Positions 390 to 45,804 are shown, numbered from the stretch's first letter. The stretch: 54,244 nucleotides of DNA from an uncultured Candidatus Saccharibacteria bacterium (GCA_964348645.1 CAYGDK010000001.1:14426-68669); one strand, 5' to 3'. Numbers and translations: made by a program. Notes: a model not told the origin generated them from the sequence alone.

Positions 390-1760
390 ATGAAGGACAA
401 GAACCTCGTGGAAGAGATTGCGGATGCACCAGCACTTGCGATAGAGAAGACGATCGAAACGACCGAGAAGCTCATCCATGAACTCCCAGGGCAGGGGTCG
501 ATCAATAAGGTTAGGCACTTTTGGCATTCGCTTGGTCCTGGCTTAACAACCGGTGCGTCCGATGACGATCCGTCTGGGATTGCGACTTACTCCCAAACAG
601 GTGCGCAGTTTGGCAATCAGCTACTTTGGCTAGCCGGCTTCACCTTCCCACTGATGGCGATCGTGCAAGAAATGTGCGCTCGTATTGGTCTAGTCACCGG
701 CCGCGGACTGGCTGCCAATATACGCACGCACTATTCTAAAAAAGTTTTGTACATCACCGCCTTACTACTGCTGGCCGCTAACTCTTTCAATATTGGCGCT
801 GATTTAGGCGCGATGGCCGAAGGCGCTCGCCTACTATTCCCAGGTATCGGCTCGGGCGTGTTGGTTGTGGGCTTCGCGATAACTAGTTTAATCCTTCAAA
901 TTTTTACGCCGTACGCTACCTATGCGCGCTACCTAAAATACTTGGCCTTTGTTCTGATTGCATACATTTTTTCTGCCATTCTCGCTGGCTTAAACTGGTC
1001 GGATATTGGCCGAGCAGCAGTATTGCCAAGCATCACTTGGTCAAAGGAGCAGGTGATCTTGATCTGCGCAATTCTGGGAACGACGATCTCACCGTACCTT
1101 TTCTTCTGGCAGACCTCACAGGAAGTTGAAGAGCAAATCGCTGGCGGTAAGACGACGCTCGCTTCTCGCCAAGGTGCGAGTGATGCTGAGGTTAAAGATA
1201 TGCGAGTTGATGTTTGGTCGGGAATGTTTTTGTCGAACGTGGTGATGTTCTTTATTATTGCCGCGTGCGCTGCCATCTTGTTTCCGCAAGGTATTACTCA
1301 GATCAGTTCCGCCGCCGAAGCCGCTGAGGCGCTCCGGCCTTTTGCCGGCGAAGCAACCTTCTTCTTATTTGCGATTGGGATTATTGGTACCGGATTGTTG
1401 GCAATCCCGGTACTGGCCGGTTCCGCATCTTACGCTATGAGCGAAAGTTTTGGTTGGGGCGGCGGATTGGGCAAAACACTTAAGCAAGCCCACAGTTTTT
1501 ATGGCGTCATAATAATTTCAATGCTACTCGGCTTGGGGATGAACTTTATTGGTCTCAACCCAATGAAGGCGTTGATTTACTCGGCAGTACTGAACGGTTT
1601 AGTTGCACCGATAGTGCTTGTTATTATTGTCCAGCTAAGTCGCGATCAAAGAATCATGGGCGAACGTAGAAATAGCCGGCTGACAAGTGCGATTGGGTGG
1701 GCTGTAGTTGCCCTGATGACAATCGCTGGCCTGGCGGCGCTGATTTCGCTGATAGCCTAA
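390..1760 (+). CDS. Nramp-family divalent metal cation transporter
   Basis: 456-aa polytopic ORF with N-terminal motif GASDDDPSGIATYSQTGAQFG, characteristic of Nramp-like transporters. Confidence 0.85.
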   Translation: MKDKNLVEEIADAPALAIEKTIETTEKLIHELPGQGSINKVRHFWHSLGPGLTTGASDDDPSGIATYSQTGAQFGNQLLWLAGFTFPLMAIVQEMCARIGLVTGRGLAANIRTHYSKKVLYITALLLLAANSFNIGADLGAMAEGARLLFPGIGSGVLVVGFAITSLILQIFTPYATYARYLKYLAFVLIAYIFSAILAGLNWSDIGRAAVLPSITWSKEQVILICAILGTTISPYLFFWQTSQEVEEQIAGGKTTLASRQGASDAEVKDMRVDVWSGMFLSNVVMFFIIAACAAILFPQGITQISSAAEAAEALRPFAGEATFFLFAIGIIGTGLLAIPVLAGSASYAMSESFGWGGGLGKTLKQAHSFYGVIIISMLLGLGMNFIGLNPMKALIYSAVLNGLVAPIVLVIIVQLSRDQRIMGERRNSRLTSAIGWAVVALMTIAGLAALISLIA

Positions 1761-1821: not shown

Positions 1822-1895
1822 GCCCCCGTAGCTCAGTGGATTAGAGCGAGACGGTTCTAACGTCGAGGTCGTAGGTTCGAATCCTACCGGGGGTA
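1822..1895 (+). tRNA. tRNA-Arg (anticodon TCT)
   Basis: Hand-folded cloverleaf: acceptor GCCCCCG/CGGGGGT, D arm GCTC/GAGC, anticodon stem AGACG/CGTCG with loop GTTCTAA, T arm GTAGG-TTCGAAT-CCTAC. Confidence 0.85.
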
Positions 1896-1900
1896 CTACA

Positions 1901-1931
1901 CAAACGACCCGGTAATTTGCCGGGTCGTTTG
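1901..1931 (+). terminator. Perfect 12-bp stem-loop just after tRNA-Arg (no clear U-tract)
   Basis: CAAACGACCCGG-taatttg-CCGGGTCGTTTG. Confidence 0.45.
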
Positions 1932-1939
1932 TGTATGGT

Positions 1940-2034
1940 GTCGTAGGTGAGAACCTAAGGTTCGACAACGACCGAGCGGTAGCGAGGGAGGTGTACCGCA
2001 GTGAAGCGGAGGTAATCCTACCGGGTGTACTACA
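1940..2034 (+). repeat. Degenerate, interrupted second copy of the tRNA-Arg(TCT) 3' portion
   Basis: GTCGTAGGT (1940-1948) and GGTTCGA (1959-1965) match tRNA positions 1868-1880. AATCCTACCGGGTGTACTACA (2014-2034) matches 1880-1900 at 20/21, including 5 nt beyond the tRNA end. Confidence 0.8.
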
Positions 2035-2476
2035 GGAAGTGGCTAATAAGTTTTTCAGTATCGCCACCTAGGACGATTGGGTTTAGACCGATTATTTCTT
2101 CTAAGTAAGCAGACTCTTTGGGGATGTTGTTCAGAATAAAGATCGGCTTTTTCAAATAGAATGCTATCGTCATTTCCATCAAGACATTACCGCCAATGTA
2201 GTTTGGGATACCTCGCTTCTTCTCGTTTATTACTAATATCGCATCGCTCTTCTCTATCTCAGCGAAGTGCCCGTTCATTAGCGCGGTTTTCTTGCTGTAA
2301 TCGTTGGCGTTTGAAAACCAAGTCTTGTAATGACTGACCTCAAAGTCACCATTTTTCTTCATTATTTCGGCTGTGGCAGGTAGAAGCGTGGAGATGCCGT
2401 GTGTTTCTAGCTCGCCCTGGATTTCGACAGCTCTTTTATAGAAATCAGCGCTTGAACATAAGGTGACAGTTGTCAT
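2030..2476 (-). CDS. Nucleoside 2-deoxyribosyltransferase-superfamily protein (tentative)
   Basis: 148-aa ORF. The pattern SDAILVINEKKRGIPNYIGGNVLMEMTIAFYLKKPIFILN resembles the Rossmann-like deoxyribosyltransferase fold. Its TAG stop lies inside the tRNA-end repeat. Confidence 0.45.
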   Translation of the reverse strand: MTTVTLCSSADFYKRAVEIQGELETHGISTLLPATAEIMKKNGDFEVSHYKTWFSNANDYSKKTALMNGHFAEIEKSDAILVINEKKRGIPNYIGGNVLMEMTIAFYLKKPIFILNNIPKESAYLEEIIGLNPIVLGGDTEKLISHFL

Positions 2477-11055: not shown

Positions 11056-11088
11056 GGCGGCACAGCAATGTGCCGCCCAAACTTTTAC
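11056..11088 (+). terminator. Intrinsic terminator after the GreA-like gene
   Basis: GGGCGGCACA-gcaa-TGTGCCGCCC followed by AAACTTTT. Confidence 0.7.
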
Positions 11089-12788
11089 TCTCTAAATGGT
11101 GCAATGAACCTGATATTCCAGTAAAATACACAAAGGCGCCCGTAGCTCAGTGGATACTCGATCGAAGATCTCGTTCCACTTTGCCCAAGCGCACGCATGC
11201 GCCCGTAGCTCAGTGGATAGAGCGACTGACTTCGGATCAGTAGGCCAGGGGTTCGAATCCCTTCGGGCGCACCAAACTGGATGTTATTTTCTTGGAGTTC
11301 CAGAATAGCCTGATAGAACGGGCTTTTTGGGGTGTTCGAATAGCCCGGATAGCGATATTGCAGTCCGGAGGGGAATATCGAACACAACAGGGTACGCTTC
11401 TCTTCTAACGAACCATTTTCATAGGTTTCATTTAAGTCTTTGAACTTCGTGGCGATAAACTCGGTGATAGCCGCCAGACTATATTTTTCGATGACTGAAT
11501 CATTTTTAGCGATCTGGACGGTTTTTATTTTATCCTCCAGCATTTTATTCTGTTCTTTGAAGATCGAGTCTGAGTAAACTCCTGATAGGTTCTTCTCAAC
11601 TAAGGCCTGGCGCAATTCGTAGTACTTTTTCAGGTCTTCGTCGGCCTTCTCCCGCTTCTTCTGCAGGGAGCCGGTTCGTAGGTAGTAGGTGCGGCGTAGG
11701 AAGGCGTTCAACAATTCAATAGTCTTCGGCCGAAGGCTAACTGCTTGTAATTCTGTTGCCGTCTCTTCGTGCAGCTTCTCTTTGGCTATGGAATGACTAC
11801 CTTTACACCGTTTTTGACAACAATAGTAAGCGTAACGTTTGAGTTTACCCTTACTCCACCCTGCCGTTAGTGAGTGGCCGCAGACCGAGCATTTCACAAG
11901 ACGGCGCAGCGGGAACTCGGTGCTGTCAAAGTTTCTTCGCGCTAAAGCGGGAGCTAAGTTGCGATTTCGGCCGTCAAGGGCAGCCTGAACTTGATAGAAT
12001 TGTGCCTCCGTGATCATCGGCGTGTGTTGGCCTTGAGCTTCATCCCCGTATTTCCTTGATACCAGCTTTCCAACATAGAACTTGTTCCGAAAAATGTTAT
12101 TCAGAGTCTGCGGACGGATAGGATATTCTTTGTGCCCTTTGCGCTGCTCTCTAAGCCCCTTTTCATTTAGAAAGTCAGCCATCGCCTGGAGACTCTTAGT
12201 TCCGGTTGCCATCAGCTCCCACGCCTCCTTCATTAAGGAATATTTTTCCGGATCTTTAGCGATATAGCCGTTTTGATTTAGATAACCAATTGGTACGGTC
12301 CCGGTATGAAGACCAGCCAAGAAGCGAGCACGCATCCCATTCTTTGTTCGTTCGCTTCGAACGTCATTATCCATTTGAGCAAATCCGGCCAGCATTGTTT
12401 CGATAAACTTCTCAGTCGGCGTGTTGCCAGTTGGCTCGGTGGCCGAAATTAAGACAATATCTACTTCGGCTAATTTCTTACGAATTGCCAGGTAGTCGGC
12501 TGTCTGCCGCGACAGGCGGTCAAGCCGGTAAACGATAATCGCCCGGACATCTTTCTTGTTTTTTCGGCAGAATTCGAGCATTTCAATCAGTGTCGGCCGA
12601 CCCTTAATAGTCTTTGCTGACCGACCTTCTTCACGAAAAACTTTCAGTACCCCCAGCCCTCGCCGTTCGGCTTCTTTTACACAAATGTCTAATTGCGTTT
12701 CCAGTGAGTAGTTTTCAACTTGCTCTTCCGTCGAAACTCGTAAGTAAATTACGGCTTGTGATGACTTCCCTTCTTCGATTTGATGCAT
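11085..12788 (-). CDS. Large serine recombinase; the last ~63 codons of the ORF are antisense to tRNA-Arg and its partial copy
   Basis: Resolvase N-terminal domain (AVIYLRVSTEEQ), recombinase domain, Zn ribbon (CSVCGHS...YYCCQKRC) and a coiled-coil tail. The tail ...FGAPEGIRTPGLLIRSQSLYPLSYGR is a typical antisense-tRNA translation, so the native C-terminus probably lies near 11280. Confidence 0.85.
   Translation of the reverse strand: MHQIEEGKSSQAVIYLRVSTEEQVENYSLETQLDICVKEAERRGLGVLKVFREEGRSAKTIKGRPTLIEMLEFCRKNKKDVRAIIVYRLDRLSRQTADYLAIRKKLAEVDIVLISATEPTGNTPTEKFIETMLAGFAQMDNDVRSERTKNGMRARFLAGLHTGTVPIGYLNQNGYIAKDPEKYSLMKEAWELMATGTKSLQAMADFLNEKGLREQRKGHKEYPIRPQTLNNIFRNKFYVGKLVSRKYGDEAQGQHTPMITEAQFYQVQAALDGRNRNLAPALARRNFDSTEFPLRRLVKCSVCGHSLTAGWSKGKLKRYAYYCCQKRCKGSHSIAKEKLHEETATELQAVSLRPKTIELLNAFLRRTYYLRTGSLQKKREKADEDLKKYYELRQALVEKNLSGVYSDSIFKEQNKMLEDKIKTVQIAKNDSVIEKYSLAAITEFIATKFKDLNETYENGSLEEKRTLLCSIFPSGLQYRYPGYSNTPKSPFYQAILELQENNIQFGAPEGIRTPGLLIRSQSLYPLSYGRMRALGQSGTRSSIEYPLSYGRLCVFYWNIRFIAPFRE
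11136..11156 (+). repeat. Truncated duplicate of the first 21 nt of tRNA-Arg(TCG)
   Basis: GCGCCCGTAGCTCAGTGGATA is identical to 11199-11219 but is followed by unrelated sequence (CTCGATCG...). Confidence 0.9.
11199..11274 (+). tRNA. tRNA-Arg (anticodon TCG), CCA encoded
   Basis: GCGCCCG-TA-GCTC-AGTGGATA-GAGC-G-ACTGA-CTTCGGA-TCAGT-AGGCC-AGGGG-TTCGAAT-CCCTT-CGGGCGC-A-CCA. Confidence 0.88.
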
Positions 12789-35766: not shown

Positions 35767-37098
35767 TTATGGGCGAATTCTTACGAGGAATGGACCACTT
35801 CTTGCTATCCAATGGCTATCCCTTACCACGAAAGCCTCAATCCAATGTGTGCCAATATAAAGTGAGGATTCTTTGCGAGTATCACCCTGGCCGCTGACCA
35901 CAAATCCTCCGCGCAGACCACTTACTTGCCTAGCATGATCACCCGTGTTTACCACCTGCCAATGAATTGTGTAGGGCTGTGGGACGTCGGTTTGGGCCGT
36001 GAAGTATAAGTTCCAGTTTTGCTCAACAATATCATTTGAGCTAAAACTTGATTCCGGGCCCTCCCATTTACGACGGAACCCCTTCTTGGGTGCCTGCATT
36101 CTTTTAATCGCTCGTACCGTTGCTTTATAACTGCTCGATAGGTGCGACCAAGGAACTGGTTGCCGATGAGAGTAGTCTGCCAATTCGGGCACTTCTGCCT
36201 CAACGATTGACCTGTTTTTTGCCTCAGGGAAGTCATCCCCTAACAATTTACGCCACAAGACAGCGCTTTGTATTTCACTTTCTTCCGCAAATGCCTGCTC
36301 GGCCACTACCGCTGCTGCCAATACTTCCCGCCGGAAATCTTTGTAATGAGCAGTCTCCCAGCGTTCAGCAAAATCTTCCTCTGACATCACGGGGTTTGGT
36401 ACCGGAGGCGGCGAATCTGGGTGTTGCTCAAGCATTCCAGCAATACCGGACAAAGTAATCGTTAAGTTATCGGCATCAGTTTCATCGTTGAGAAACGACA
36501 TCGAAGCTATAACTTGAAGTGTTACAGATTTTATCGCCTGATTAACATTTTGGTTGAAATCCCGCCAGCGCTTGAGCATCTTCACGGTCCGTAAAAAGTT
36601 GTCTCCCTGGTTTTTGCACCACTCCGTATAGGCTTTTGGATTACTAAGCACCCAACCATCACTACGCTGCGGTATTTCAATAAACCCTTCTGTTTCACTC
36701 AACCGTGCGGGAACAAGATCAACGTGGAACCCACCAATTTCTTCATCAGCATATTGCAGCCGAACGCACGACTCTTTACGTGGGTTGGTCACTACCATGG
36801 TTTTGTACGTACCGTTCTCTAGTAGGGCATTTTCCAAGATAGTAAGCGCTTCTAAAGCTGTTTGCCTCGCTTCGGCACAGAGCACAACTAGATCAACATC
36901 ATACTCACCATCTTCGAGTGGCTTGACAGACGTCTCGTTAGCGTAAGAGCCTTGAAGAAAGAAGTCATCTTTAGTAATCCCGAAGTAGTTTGAAAGATAG
37001 CCTGTCAAACCGCCTACGGCATCGTTGATTCGCTCGTGCTGCTTGTCTCCGAGCGAAATTTTTTCAACAAATTCGCTGAACGACGAATTTAATTTCAT
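35767..37098 (-). CDS. SMODS/CD-NTase-like nucleotidyltransferase with a long beta-rich C-terminal extension (possibly AGS-C-like)
   Basis: ATG 37098 has GGAGG upstream. Motifs FFLQGSYANETSVKP, DVDLVVL and GGFHVDLVPAR. The C-terminal ~200 aa end WQVVNTGDHARQVSGLRGGF...THWIEAFVV. The track ORF start at 37179 looks spurious. Confidence 0.7.
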   Translation of the reverse strand: MKLNSSFSEFVEKISLGDKQHERINDAVGGLTGYLSNYFGITKDDFFLQGSYANETSVKPLEDGEYDVDLVVLCAEARQTALEALTILENALLENGTYKTMVVTNPRKESCVRLQYADEEIGGFHVDLVPARLSETEGFIEIPQRSDGWVLSNPKAYTEWCKNQGDNFLRTVKMLKRWRDFNQNVNQAIKSVTLQVIASMSFLNDETDADNLTITLSGIAGMLEQHPDSPPPVPNPVMSEEDFAERWETAHYKDFRREVLAAAVVAEQAFAEESEIQSAVLWRKLLGDDFPEAKNRSIVEAEVPELADYSHRQPVPWSHLSSSYKATVRAIKRMQAPKKGFRRKWEGPESSFSSNDIVEQNWNLYFTAQTDVPQPYTIHWQVVNTGDHARQVSGLRGGFVVSGQGDTRKESSLYIGTHWIEAFVVRDSHWIARSGPFLVRIRP

Positions 37099-45173: not shown

Positions 45174-45245
45174 GGGCCATTAGTTCAGCGGCAGAACAAC
45201 GGACTCTTAATCCGTGTGTCGGTGGTTCGATCCCACCATGGCCCA
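45174..45245 (+). tRNA. tRNA-Lys (anticodon CTT)
   Basis: GGGCCAT-TA-GTTC-AGCGGCA-GAAC-A-ACGGA-CTCTTAA-TCCGT-GTGTC-GGTGG-TTCGATC-CCACC-ATGGCCC-A. Confidence 0.88.
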
Positions 45246-45246
45246 C

Positions 45247-45281
45247 AAGAAAATCCCGGTCTTTATGGCCGGGTTTTTCTT
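45247..45281 (+). terminator. Intrinsic terminator just after tRNA-Lys
   Basis: AAGAAAATCCCGG...CCGGGTTTTTCTT, a stem with a T5 tract. Confidence 0.65.
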
Positions 45282-45377
45282 GTGCCTAAGGTTGGGCGAC
45301 CCCAGGCCATTAGGCCGAGGTTCGACTTCGAGCAGCTCAGTAGAGCTGCGAGTAGTGGAGTCGCGCTAGCGACGGAA

Positions 45378-45394
45378 ATCCCACCATGGCCCAC
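45378..45394 (+). repeat. Second copy of the tRNA-Lys 3' end
   Basis: ATCCCACCATGGCCCAC is identical to 45230-45246. Confidence 0.85.
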
Positions 45395-45804
45395 TAGAGC
45401 AGGTCAGTTAGTATCTTTGCGACGTCGCCTATTGTTTGATACCGACATACTTTGAATTCCGGGGCTCCATCTACTAAAGCTGAAAGTCGGCGACCTTCTT
45501 GCTCTCGATAGAGGCAGATCACTTTCTTGCCCCACTCCTCGGCCCAGCCAAGTTCCATTCCGACGCCCAAGCTCGGCGTCGTCACTTCTGCGACAATTAC
45601 ATCGGCTTCGCGAACCCAATCTTTATCTCTATTGCGAATAAACGTGTTTGTTAGGTTCTCGCCGTCCGTCGTCAGATTCTTGCTGCCAAAGTGCTCACTG
45701 AGGACGAGACCGTGCTTCTTTAGCTCTGCAATAATGCTCGAGTATATTTCCTGATCATCTCTGCCGCTCCGGATCGACGCGGCAAAATAAATTTTCTTAT
45801 GCAT
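45394..45804 (-). CDS. 2'-deoxynucleoside 5'-phosphate N-hydrolase / nucleoside 2-deoxyribosyltransferase family (DNPH1/Rcl-like)
   Basis: MHKKIYFAASIRSGRDDQEIY...VLSEH...ADVIVAEVTTPSLGVGMELGWA. I prefer ATG 45804. The TAG stop directly abuts the tRNA-end repeat. Confidence 0.7.
   Translation of the reverse strand: MHKKIYFAASIRSGRDDQEIYSSIIAELKKHGLVLSEHFGSKNLTTDGENLTNTFIRNRDKDWVREADVIVAEVTTPSLGVGMELGWAEEWGKKVICLYREQEGRRLSALVDGAPEFKVCRYQTIGDVAKILTDLL

Follow-up and report, generated by a model that had tools for sequence, protein, structure and literature searches.

Candidate RtT-type trailer units behind two tRNA genes of a Saccharibacteria contig

The stretch of DNA considered here, called the window below, comprises 54,244 nucleotides from an uncultured Candidatus Saccharibacteria bacterium (GCA_964348645.1, CAYGDK010000001.1:14426-68669). 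It is a contig of the Saccharimonadia, within the candidate phyla radiation (CPR), and the homologs of its proteins are almost all labelled Saccharibacteria or Saccharimonadales. Directly behind its tRNA-Arg(TCT) gene, the segment 1897-2034 (locus A) is probably one unit of a tRNA-trailer element of the RtT type, the type known from the tyrosine tRNA operon of Escherichia coli, and a second unit would be the segment 45247-45398 (locus B), behind tRNA-Lys(CTT). Several parts of this reading are observations: a family of such units exists, its core stands behind different tRNAs, its stems covary, its pairing favours the tRNA strand, and its units persist.

The E. coli rtT units have been known since the late 1970s and are usually set aside as a peculiarity that Enterobacteria have in their tyrosine tRNA operon, for which we know of no accepted function. 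Bösl and Kersten reportedly found in 1991 that a 171-nt rtT RNA is released from the tyrT transcript and that it affects the stringent response. The release and the stringent-response effect appear as a secondary mention in 10.1101/2024.07.17.603846. A literature search of incomplete coverage yielded no description of such elements in the CPR and almost nothing on RtT, and in Rfam only RtT itself was found.

Units at the two loci

The host gene at locus A, tRNA-Arg(TCT) (1822..1896, +), is recognized by ARAGORN and by the Rfam tRNA model (62.1 bits), and its CCA is not encoded. A preliminary description, made from the sequence alone, had reported behind this gene a perfect hairpin, an insert of about 113 nt and a second copy of the tRNA 3' end, and this arrangement was confirmed. 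Repeat copy 1 (1880..1900, +) runs from T-loop A58, at position 1880, to the discriminator and takes in five trailer nucleotides, CTACA; copy 2 (2014..2034, +), which forms the 3' end of the element, is identical to it at 20 of 21 positions, with one G>T change. When the repeat 17-mer was searched with up to two mismatches, it matched at the two locus A sites only (chance expectation 0.00). The 113 nt between the copies hold the hairpin and then 78 more bases. The hairpin (1897..1935, +) abuts the tRNA on its 3' side and is stronger than first described, with a perfect stem of 16 bp instead of 12, a 7-nt loop and no U-tract (arms of 19 nt each, 95% complementary); it stands where other units have a bidirectional terminator.

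Behind the hairpin lies a pseudo-T-arm (1940..1957, +), in which GTCGTAGG, a copy of the variable loop and of the 5' strand of the T-stem (T5'), is followed by an altered T-loop, TGAGAA, and by CCTA, a copy of the 3' strand (T3'). The same T5'-TGAGAA-T3' arrangement is found in the E. coli rtT units. Next come a second block resembling a T-stem and T-loop, AGGTTCGAC (1958..1966, +), and the conserved core (1967..2013, +), with CGAGCGGTAGCGAGG at 1973-1987, a small hairpin, CCGC-AGTGAA-GCGG, at 1996-2009 and the linker AGGT. The further fragments of the tRNA 3' third that had been suspected in the insert are real, namely GTCGTAGGT at 1940-1948 and AGGTTCGA at 1958-1965, both within the 78 bases. 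Likewise, the motif CCTAAGGTTCGAC, singled out in the same description, is a genuine family feature, composed of the 3' half of the pseudo-T-arm and then GGTTCGA, which is invariant in six of six aligned family members.

At locus B, the host tRNA-Lys(CTT) (45174..45246, +; ARAGORN and Rfam tRNA) is followed by a terminator hairpin with a 5' A-tract and a 3' U-tract, which looks bidirectional (45244..45284, +), by the core of the second unit (45285..45377, +), made up of a T5'-like GGTTGGG and then three hairpins and GAGGTTCGAC, and by a copy of the tRNA-Lys 3' end (45378..45398, +). The claim that this locus has the same architecture as locus A is borne out by the terminator hairpin, by the repeat, 20 of whose 21 positions agree with 45230-45250, and by the stop codon of a convergent gene at 45394-45396.

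As RNA, the locus B core folds far better than its shuffled versions (z -4.4). The locus is present in four related contigs (L249-L252), in which the adjoining protein is 72-84% identical, and the comparison comprised these four and the window; a further contig, L248, belongs to the same strain as the window and is uninformative in this respect. The five genomes have a common structure of 32 pairs, with double changes in six of them, and the hairpins change in a compensatory manner (for instance, CAGCTC/GAGCTG versus CAATTAA/TTAATTG). In the consensus fold, the T5'-like segment pairs with the T3' part of the repeat, and the resulting helix closes around the three hairpins, with the acceptor copy trailing from it as a tail. 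From its ortholog in L252, the window's unit differs chiefly by its longer hairpins.

Aligned directly, the inserts of the two loci give a marginal result, the score being reached by 173 of 2000 shuffles in one test and by 88 of 3000 in another. The L252 ortholog of locus B is much closer to locus A: its core, behind tRNA-Lys(CTT), matches the locus A core at 41 of 51 ungapped positions (score 62 versus 20.0±3.9; 0 of 3000 shuffles), while the ends of the L252 unit match tRNA-Lys and not tRNA-Arg. Because this ortholog of B carries an A-like core, the two loci are assigned to one family, and it is the only link between them. The formal alignment of the two inserts proposed in the preliminary description thus succeeds through L252 and not directly, and it is through the L252 core that the claim of one kind of element at both loci holds.

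Outside the CPR, the nearest known sequence is that of rtT, for which the tyrT-tyrV-rttR locus of E. coli K-12 (L126), with its 178-bp units, served as the reference. A permissive Rfam scan placed RtT (RF00391) in full length (model positions 1-130) on 1927-2032 (+), with the motifs in the same order. After removal of the tRNA-specific ends, the locus A core aligns with two E. coli rtT units with scores of 47 and 41 (about 22.5±4 for shuffled sequences, 0 of 3000 reaching the score in each case); when the T-loop-like block is removed as well, the score is reached by 11 of 5000 shuffles for A and by 14 of 5000 for L252. In roughly 2 Mb of DNA, the composite motif was found only at locus A and in four E. 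coli units. Homology of the locus A unit with E. coli rtT is therefore best called probable, and not proven. Within E. coli, the rtT core occurs at 1-10 places in each of 5426 complete genomes (median 3), labelled 'RtT sRNA' by PGAP; among viral contigs, a scan for the RtT-type motif returned an E. coli-like fragment only.

Units behind other tRNA genes

The survey of the Saccharimonadia covered 84 tRNAs from the window and from about 80 genome loci, and recorded whether the last 16 nt of a tRNA recurred, with at most two mismatches, 80-180 nt downstream of it. Twelve of the 84 had their own 3' end again downstream, and after exclusion of one match that is an adjacent tRNA-Ser, 11 (~13%) are left, so that about one in eight Saccharimonadia tRNA genes has a unit. 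The upstream mirror control gave a single match, which is accounted for by the same tRNA-Ser pair. Each downstream copy resembles a tRNA 3' third that is split within the T-loop by 60-75 nt. Additional copies beside other tRNAs, for which the preliminary description had proposed a search, are thus found behind many of them, at times in tandem and in a form that varies between relatives.

A pattern common to three genome loci, GCGAGGACGCGC...GAGCACGCCGCAG, defines a sister subfamily, of which a metagenome scan yielded 118 loci (L127-L244). In about 70 of them, a tRNA ends about 60-125 nt upstream of the motif, and 17 tRNA specificities are represented; one invariant core stands behind all 17, and the ends of each unit match its own host tRNA. 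The units, an example of which is L134:328-490(-), were described on the basis of 42 non-redundant members. They are 155-210 nt long, with a median of about 177 nt, compared with 178 nt for the E. coli unit. A terminator follows the tRNA in 36 of the 42 and the repeat in 20. The terminal repeat measures 17-18 nt in 31 of them; it starts just after A58 and stops at the CCA end, beyond which identity is at chance level. In the core, a long hairpin, imperfectly paired and with internal loops rich in purines, is followed by a small one whose loop is GAA or GCA.

The sister units agree with those of loci A and B in position, strand and host clade, and they follow the same modular plan of a terminator, half copies of the T-arm, a long GA-rich hairpin, a small hairpin and a copy of the tRNA end. 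The profile hidden Markov model of the subfamily (nhmmer) gave no match in the window, and its covariance model, R1, gave 8.9 bits (E 2.2) at 1970-2030; neither matched A, B or the E. coli units significantly, and no Rfam family matches the subfamily. As judged by these comparisons, the sister subfamily shares its design with A and B, and no detectable sequence.

At one of the sister loci, L148:1239-1515(-), the tRNA gene is split by an intron of group I, as scored by Rfam (Intron_gpI, 69.3 bits), and a trailer unit behind this gene repeats the tRNA 3' end; the upstream sequence is the same in L199 and L227. An assignment of these three loci to transfer-messenger RNA ends was rejected, since L148 carries the intron-bearing tRNA and the other two have the same upstream sequence.

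The stems of the sister subfamily covary. Of the cells, 92.4% are paired, compared with 82.9% after shuffling, and there are 100 double-change cells against 32, values reached in 0 of 500 shuffles for both; slid controls are all far lower, and extra covarying pairs were detected. In the helix formed by antisense and sense copies of tRNA positions about 44-57, there are 45 G·U and 13 A·C combinations, in a register that was chosen without bias. Since G·U exceeds A·C by 45 to 13, the folded strand of tRNA polarity is favoured, and together with the covariation of the stems this bias argues for selection on the folded strand and not on a recombination scar.

Scars were what the preliminary description had seen in the two loci, either as attachment (att) sites or as a cis-mobilizable element (CIME) moved by an integrase. 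According to this explanation, an element with a tyrosine or serine integrase would have integrated at the 3' end of the tRNA, supplying it with a substitute end and a terminator, and an internal deletion would have left attL and attR about 113 nt apart, mobilizable in trans. The direct repeat of the tRNA 3' end does flank the insert, and the insert does supply a hairpin or terminator; moreover, proviruses elsewhere use tRNA-Arg 3' ends as att sites (L020, L021/L032), a gene for a large serine recombinase lies 9 kb away beside a tRNA-Arg(TCG) with a duplicated 5' fragment, and the ancestral T-stem in the repeat of the related contig L245, described below, would fit a displaced native 3' end. 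Nevertheless, the explanation is now unlikely. The A-type core stands behind both tRNA-Arg(TCT) and tRNA-Lys(CTT), and one sister core behind 17 tRNA types is incompatible with a fixed attB. The narrow range of unit sizes and a repeat that ends exactly at CCA are unlike the remnants of random deletions, a fold under selection is indicated by the covariation and by the excess of G·U pairs, and no long element with the same ends was present in any locus examined. Fixation of the insert in relatives, which had been named as the observation that would speak against scars, is what is found at locus B, conserved with compensatory changes in the four related contigs; locus A varies in form. No integrase is encoded inside the units, all repeat-bounded ones being at most 210 nt long, a result that does not extend to the flanks of the 118 loci, which were not screened, or to a trans-acting enzyme, which was not sought. 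Tools that find genomic islands by seeking tRNA fragments can mistake such repeats for integration scars.

Genuine att duplications were met with in the course of the viral-contig scans (IMG/VR) for the two tRNA ends, which returned only unrelated GC-rich proviruses. L020:10890-11140 and L021/L032 belong to such proviruses from outside the CPR, and they show, in contrast to the units, long duplications of the tRNA-Arg 3' end and the sequence downstream of it. In the window itself, an open reading frame for a large serine recombinase of 567 aa (Resolvase, Recombinase and Zn_ribbon_recom domains according to the gene table of the contig; 11085-12788, -) runs antisense across tRNA-Arg(TCG) (11199-11274), and an exact 21-nt copy of the 5' end of this tRNA is found at 11136-11156, 63 nt upstream of the gene; the site looks like an integration junction at the 5' part of the tRNA.

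Change over time and possible roles

The units change between relatives. Locus A is reduced in L245 and L006, in which the hairpin and the first T5' copy are gone, whereas GGTTCGA, GAGC...AGCGAG and the repeat are kept. The repeat of L245 retains CCTAC, which corresponds to the window's T-stem, while the live tRNA of L245 has CTCTC. Behind tRNA-Lys(TTT) of L108 (8215-8506), two units stand in tandem, and the distal one holds an older T-stem allele, GTGAG/CTCAC, as against GTGGG/CCCAC in the live tRNA and the proximal repeat. Because older alleles are retained in the distal unit of L108 and in the repeat of L245, the sequences suggest that units are dated snapshots of their tRNA and that new ones are added beside the tRNA. 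In an empty-site comparison at tRNA-Met (L062, L074, L081), the flanks were not alignable.

Several tRNA genes of this lineage have lost their encoded CCA; in the window, CTA follows tRNA-Arg (1894-1899) and CAA follows tRNA-Lys (45244-45249), whereas the same tRNA-Lys gene in L249 still encodes it. On this evidence, CCA was encoded ancestrally and has since decayed in this lineage. The window's repeats include trailer bases other than CCA, CTACA in both copies at A and C[A/T]AGA at B, which points to copying from DNA or from a precursor rather than from mature tRNA.

These observations bear on whether the units might be a self-propagating element that aims at tRNA ends without a classical integrase, the fold serving propagation and not the host. 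New units would arise beside a tRNA as copies of its 3' third, for instance through template switching by a reverse transcriptase, a route known from the Neurospora retroplasmids, or through recombination within the universal GGTTCGA T-loop. A reverse transcriptase working on a tRNA that bears 1-methyladenosine at position 58 copies the stretch from the 3' end to just after A58, and the 17-18 nt sister repeat, from just after A58 to CCA, is that very stretch. The host-matched ends of one core behind 17 specificities, the snapshots of L108 and L245, which imply that units are added beside the tRNA, the tandem units, the 1-10 copies in E. coli and the presence of a unit at only about 13% of tRNAs all agree with propagation. 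On the other hand, none of the units is accompanied by a reverse transcriptase, a transposase or terminal inverted repeats, the trailer bases in the window's repeats are not CCA, locus B is stably inherited in five genomes, and E. coli K-12 keeps rtT without a partner enzyme known to us. A self-propagating element of this kind is unlikely, though less so than an integrase scar, and it is still a serious competitor of the trailer reading.

Far less credible still is a tandem copy of the tRNA gene that has decayed and has no function. The insert does hold several pieces of the tRNA 3' third, and GGCCATTAG in B matches tRNA positions 2-10. However, ARAGORN and the Rfam tRNA model match only the five true tRNAs of the window and nothing in the inserts, and the units behind different tRNAs, as well as those of E. 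coli, have a core in common that is not derived from tRNA. In addition, GGCCATTAGGCC is a hairpin whose loop is variable in the orthologs (GGCC-GTCA-GGCC in L251), and since it varies, the likeness to the 5' end of the tRNA is probably due to chance.

In the reading favoured here, that of RtT-type trailer units, a unit begins on the tRNA strand, immediately behind the tRNA gene, with the hairpin, a terminator in most relatives, followed by one and a half copies of the host's T-arm (T5'-TGAGAA-T3', then ..GGTTCGA), and goes on with the conserved small-hairpin core (CGAGCG-n-AGCGAGG ...) and the tRNA copy from T-loop position 58/59 to the end. Transcription that reads through the hairpin or terminator would place the unit in the transcript. 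A closing helix between the upstream T5' copy and the T3' part of the terminal repeat would then enclose the hairpins, with the copy of the acceptor 3' strand as a free tail. Because this tail is the tRNA's own 3' end, the enzymes of tRNA 3'-end maturation would be expected to trim at it and so to set free an RNA some 135-180 nt long, as is reported for E. coli rtT RNA. The covariation and the excess of G·U in the sister subfamily lend such an RNA indirect support. In the DNA, the duplicated tRNA end may provide for the gain, loss and amplification of units through unequal recombination. As for a role in the cell, the best guess is that the RNA mimics a tRNA 3' end and titrates a factor that reads tRNA ends.

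Several points weigh against this reading. The RtT score at locus A, 16.8 bits (E 0.35-0.69), is below the gathering score of 45, and Rfam RtT found no match at locus B, at its orthologs, in L245 or at 12 loci of the sister subfamily. In the opposite direction, the covariance model R2, built from CPR units only, gave 12.2 bits (E 0.17) at 889-985(-) and E 1 at 1368-1460(-) of the E. coli locus L126; the E-values of the models built here are rough, and few members make up the RtT-type alignment. Convergence could account for part of the similarity to E. coli, both having copied T-arms. Folding the inserts as RNA, as the preliminary description had proposed, supports a structure at locus B and not at locus A, where the region folds no better than its shuffled versions (z -0.98). 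No sigma-70-like promoter was found for the unit, and the hairpin or terminator separates it from the tRNA. Where a T5' copy has diverged from the tRNA, the terminal repeat shows no compensating change, and since old units retain outdated T-stem alleles, it is doubtful that the function depends on exact matching to the live tRNA. The window's tRNA-Arg unit, which is short at 134 nt, may be partly decayed.

Neighbouring genes and known systems

Both units run into convergent genes, which are not part of the element. At locus A, the stop codon of a gene for a 148-aa protein (2030..2476, -) uses the CTA of repeat copy 2, in agreement with the earlier remark that a TAG stop lies inside the repeat. 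The same remark had taken this gene for deoxyribosyltransferase-like and had placed the convergent genes of the two loci in one superfamily. Neither idea could be upheld: the gene at locus B (45394..45804, -) does belong to the nucleoside 2-deoxyribosyltransferase family (PF05014), whereas the 148-aa protein has no match in Pfam and no sequence match in PDB, and BLASTP detects no similarity between the two products. The 148-aa protein represents a well-conserved family, with 38 invariant positions and 309 homologs, almost all of the latter from Saccharimonadia or other Patescibacteria. In the genome contexts that were fetched, its homologs adjoin NUDIX genes, tRNA-Met and others; the order Nramp, tRNA-Arg(TCT), 148-aa gene is kept only in the two closest relatives, L006 and L245 (74% identity), and elsewhere no homolog adjoins tRNA-Arg(TCT). 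At locus B, the repeat and the PF05014 gene are separated by an extra open reading frame and a terminator in two of the four relatives (L249 and L251). A linkage of the element to its neighbours was therefore rejected, and the neighbouring genes are incidental to it.

Elsewhere in the window, at ~35767-37098(-) as mapped from L247:12981-14312, a gene with SMODS, DncV-like nucleotidyltransferase and AGS_C matches, of the type found in cyclic oligonucleotide-based antiphage signalling systems (CBASS), adjoins a gene for the S subunit of a type I restriction enzyme; the two may form a small defence island.

Among known systems, att sites, tRNA-associated islands and CIMEs resemble the units in that a direct repeat of the tRNA 3' end brackets DNA that gives the tRNA a new downstream sequence. 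The units differ from them by their size of 130-210 nt, their conserved, covarying core, their many tRNA specificities and a repeat that stops where the mature tRNA does. Retroplasmids of Neurospora insert themselves immediately behind tRNA genes and have repeats derived from tRNA, and they and the 3' tRNA-like tags of plant RNA viruses have a tRNA-like RNA 3' terminus in common with the predicted RNA of the units. Unlike these tags, the units have no linked polymerase or reverse transcriptase, and their tail copies the adjoining tRNA and lacks a paired acceptor 5' strand.

The closest likeness is to RtT (RF00391) of the E. coli tyrT-tyrV locus (rttR/tpr), which, like the unit at locus A, follows a tRNA gene immediately and on its strand and closes with a copy of the tRNA that starts at T-loop A58 (length 19 nt in E. 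coli and 21 nt in the window). In both, the T-stem 5' copy is followed by (A/G)TGAGAA, a T3'-like CCTT or CCTA and AAGGTTCGA, and then by CGAGCG-n-AGCGAG, small hairpins, and (G)TAATCC with T3' and the acceptor strand, after which the E. coli units close with CCA. The differences concern number, host and setting. The window has a single 134-nt unit per locus, behind tRNA-Arg or tRNA-Lys of a CPR bacterium, whereas E. coli has about three tandem 178-nt units behind the tRNA-Tyr of an enterobacterium; the strong hairpin or terminator that opens the window's units is without counterpart in E. coli rtT, and the tpr-like open reading frame of the E. coli locus is without counterpart in the window's units.

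It is possible, as a tentative extension of this comparison, that all of these form one large superfamily of structured RNAs that are tied to the 3' ends of tRNAs, reaching from Enterobacteria to the CPR, each with a snapshot of the 3' third of its host tRNA, which would act as regulators that mimic tRNA ends or as a self-copying element with the tRNA as its template or target. The element lends itself to study, as hundreds of natural variants define its fold, and it poses a mechanistic question, namely how the match between a unit and its host tRNA arises. Should one design prove to stand behind nearly every tRNA specificity of a distant, genome-reduced phylum, and with covarying stems, E. 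coli rtT would be one example of a general class of tRNA-trailer RNAs.

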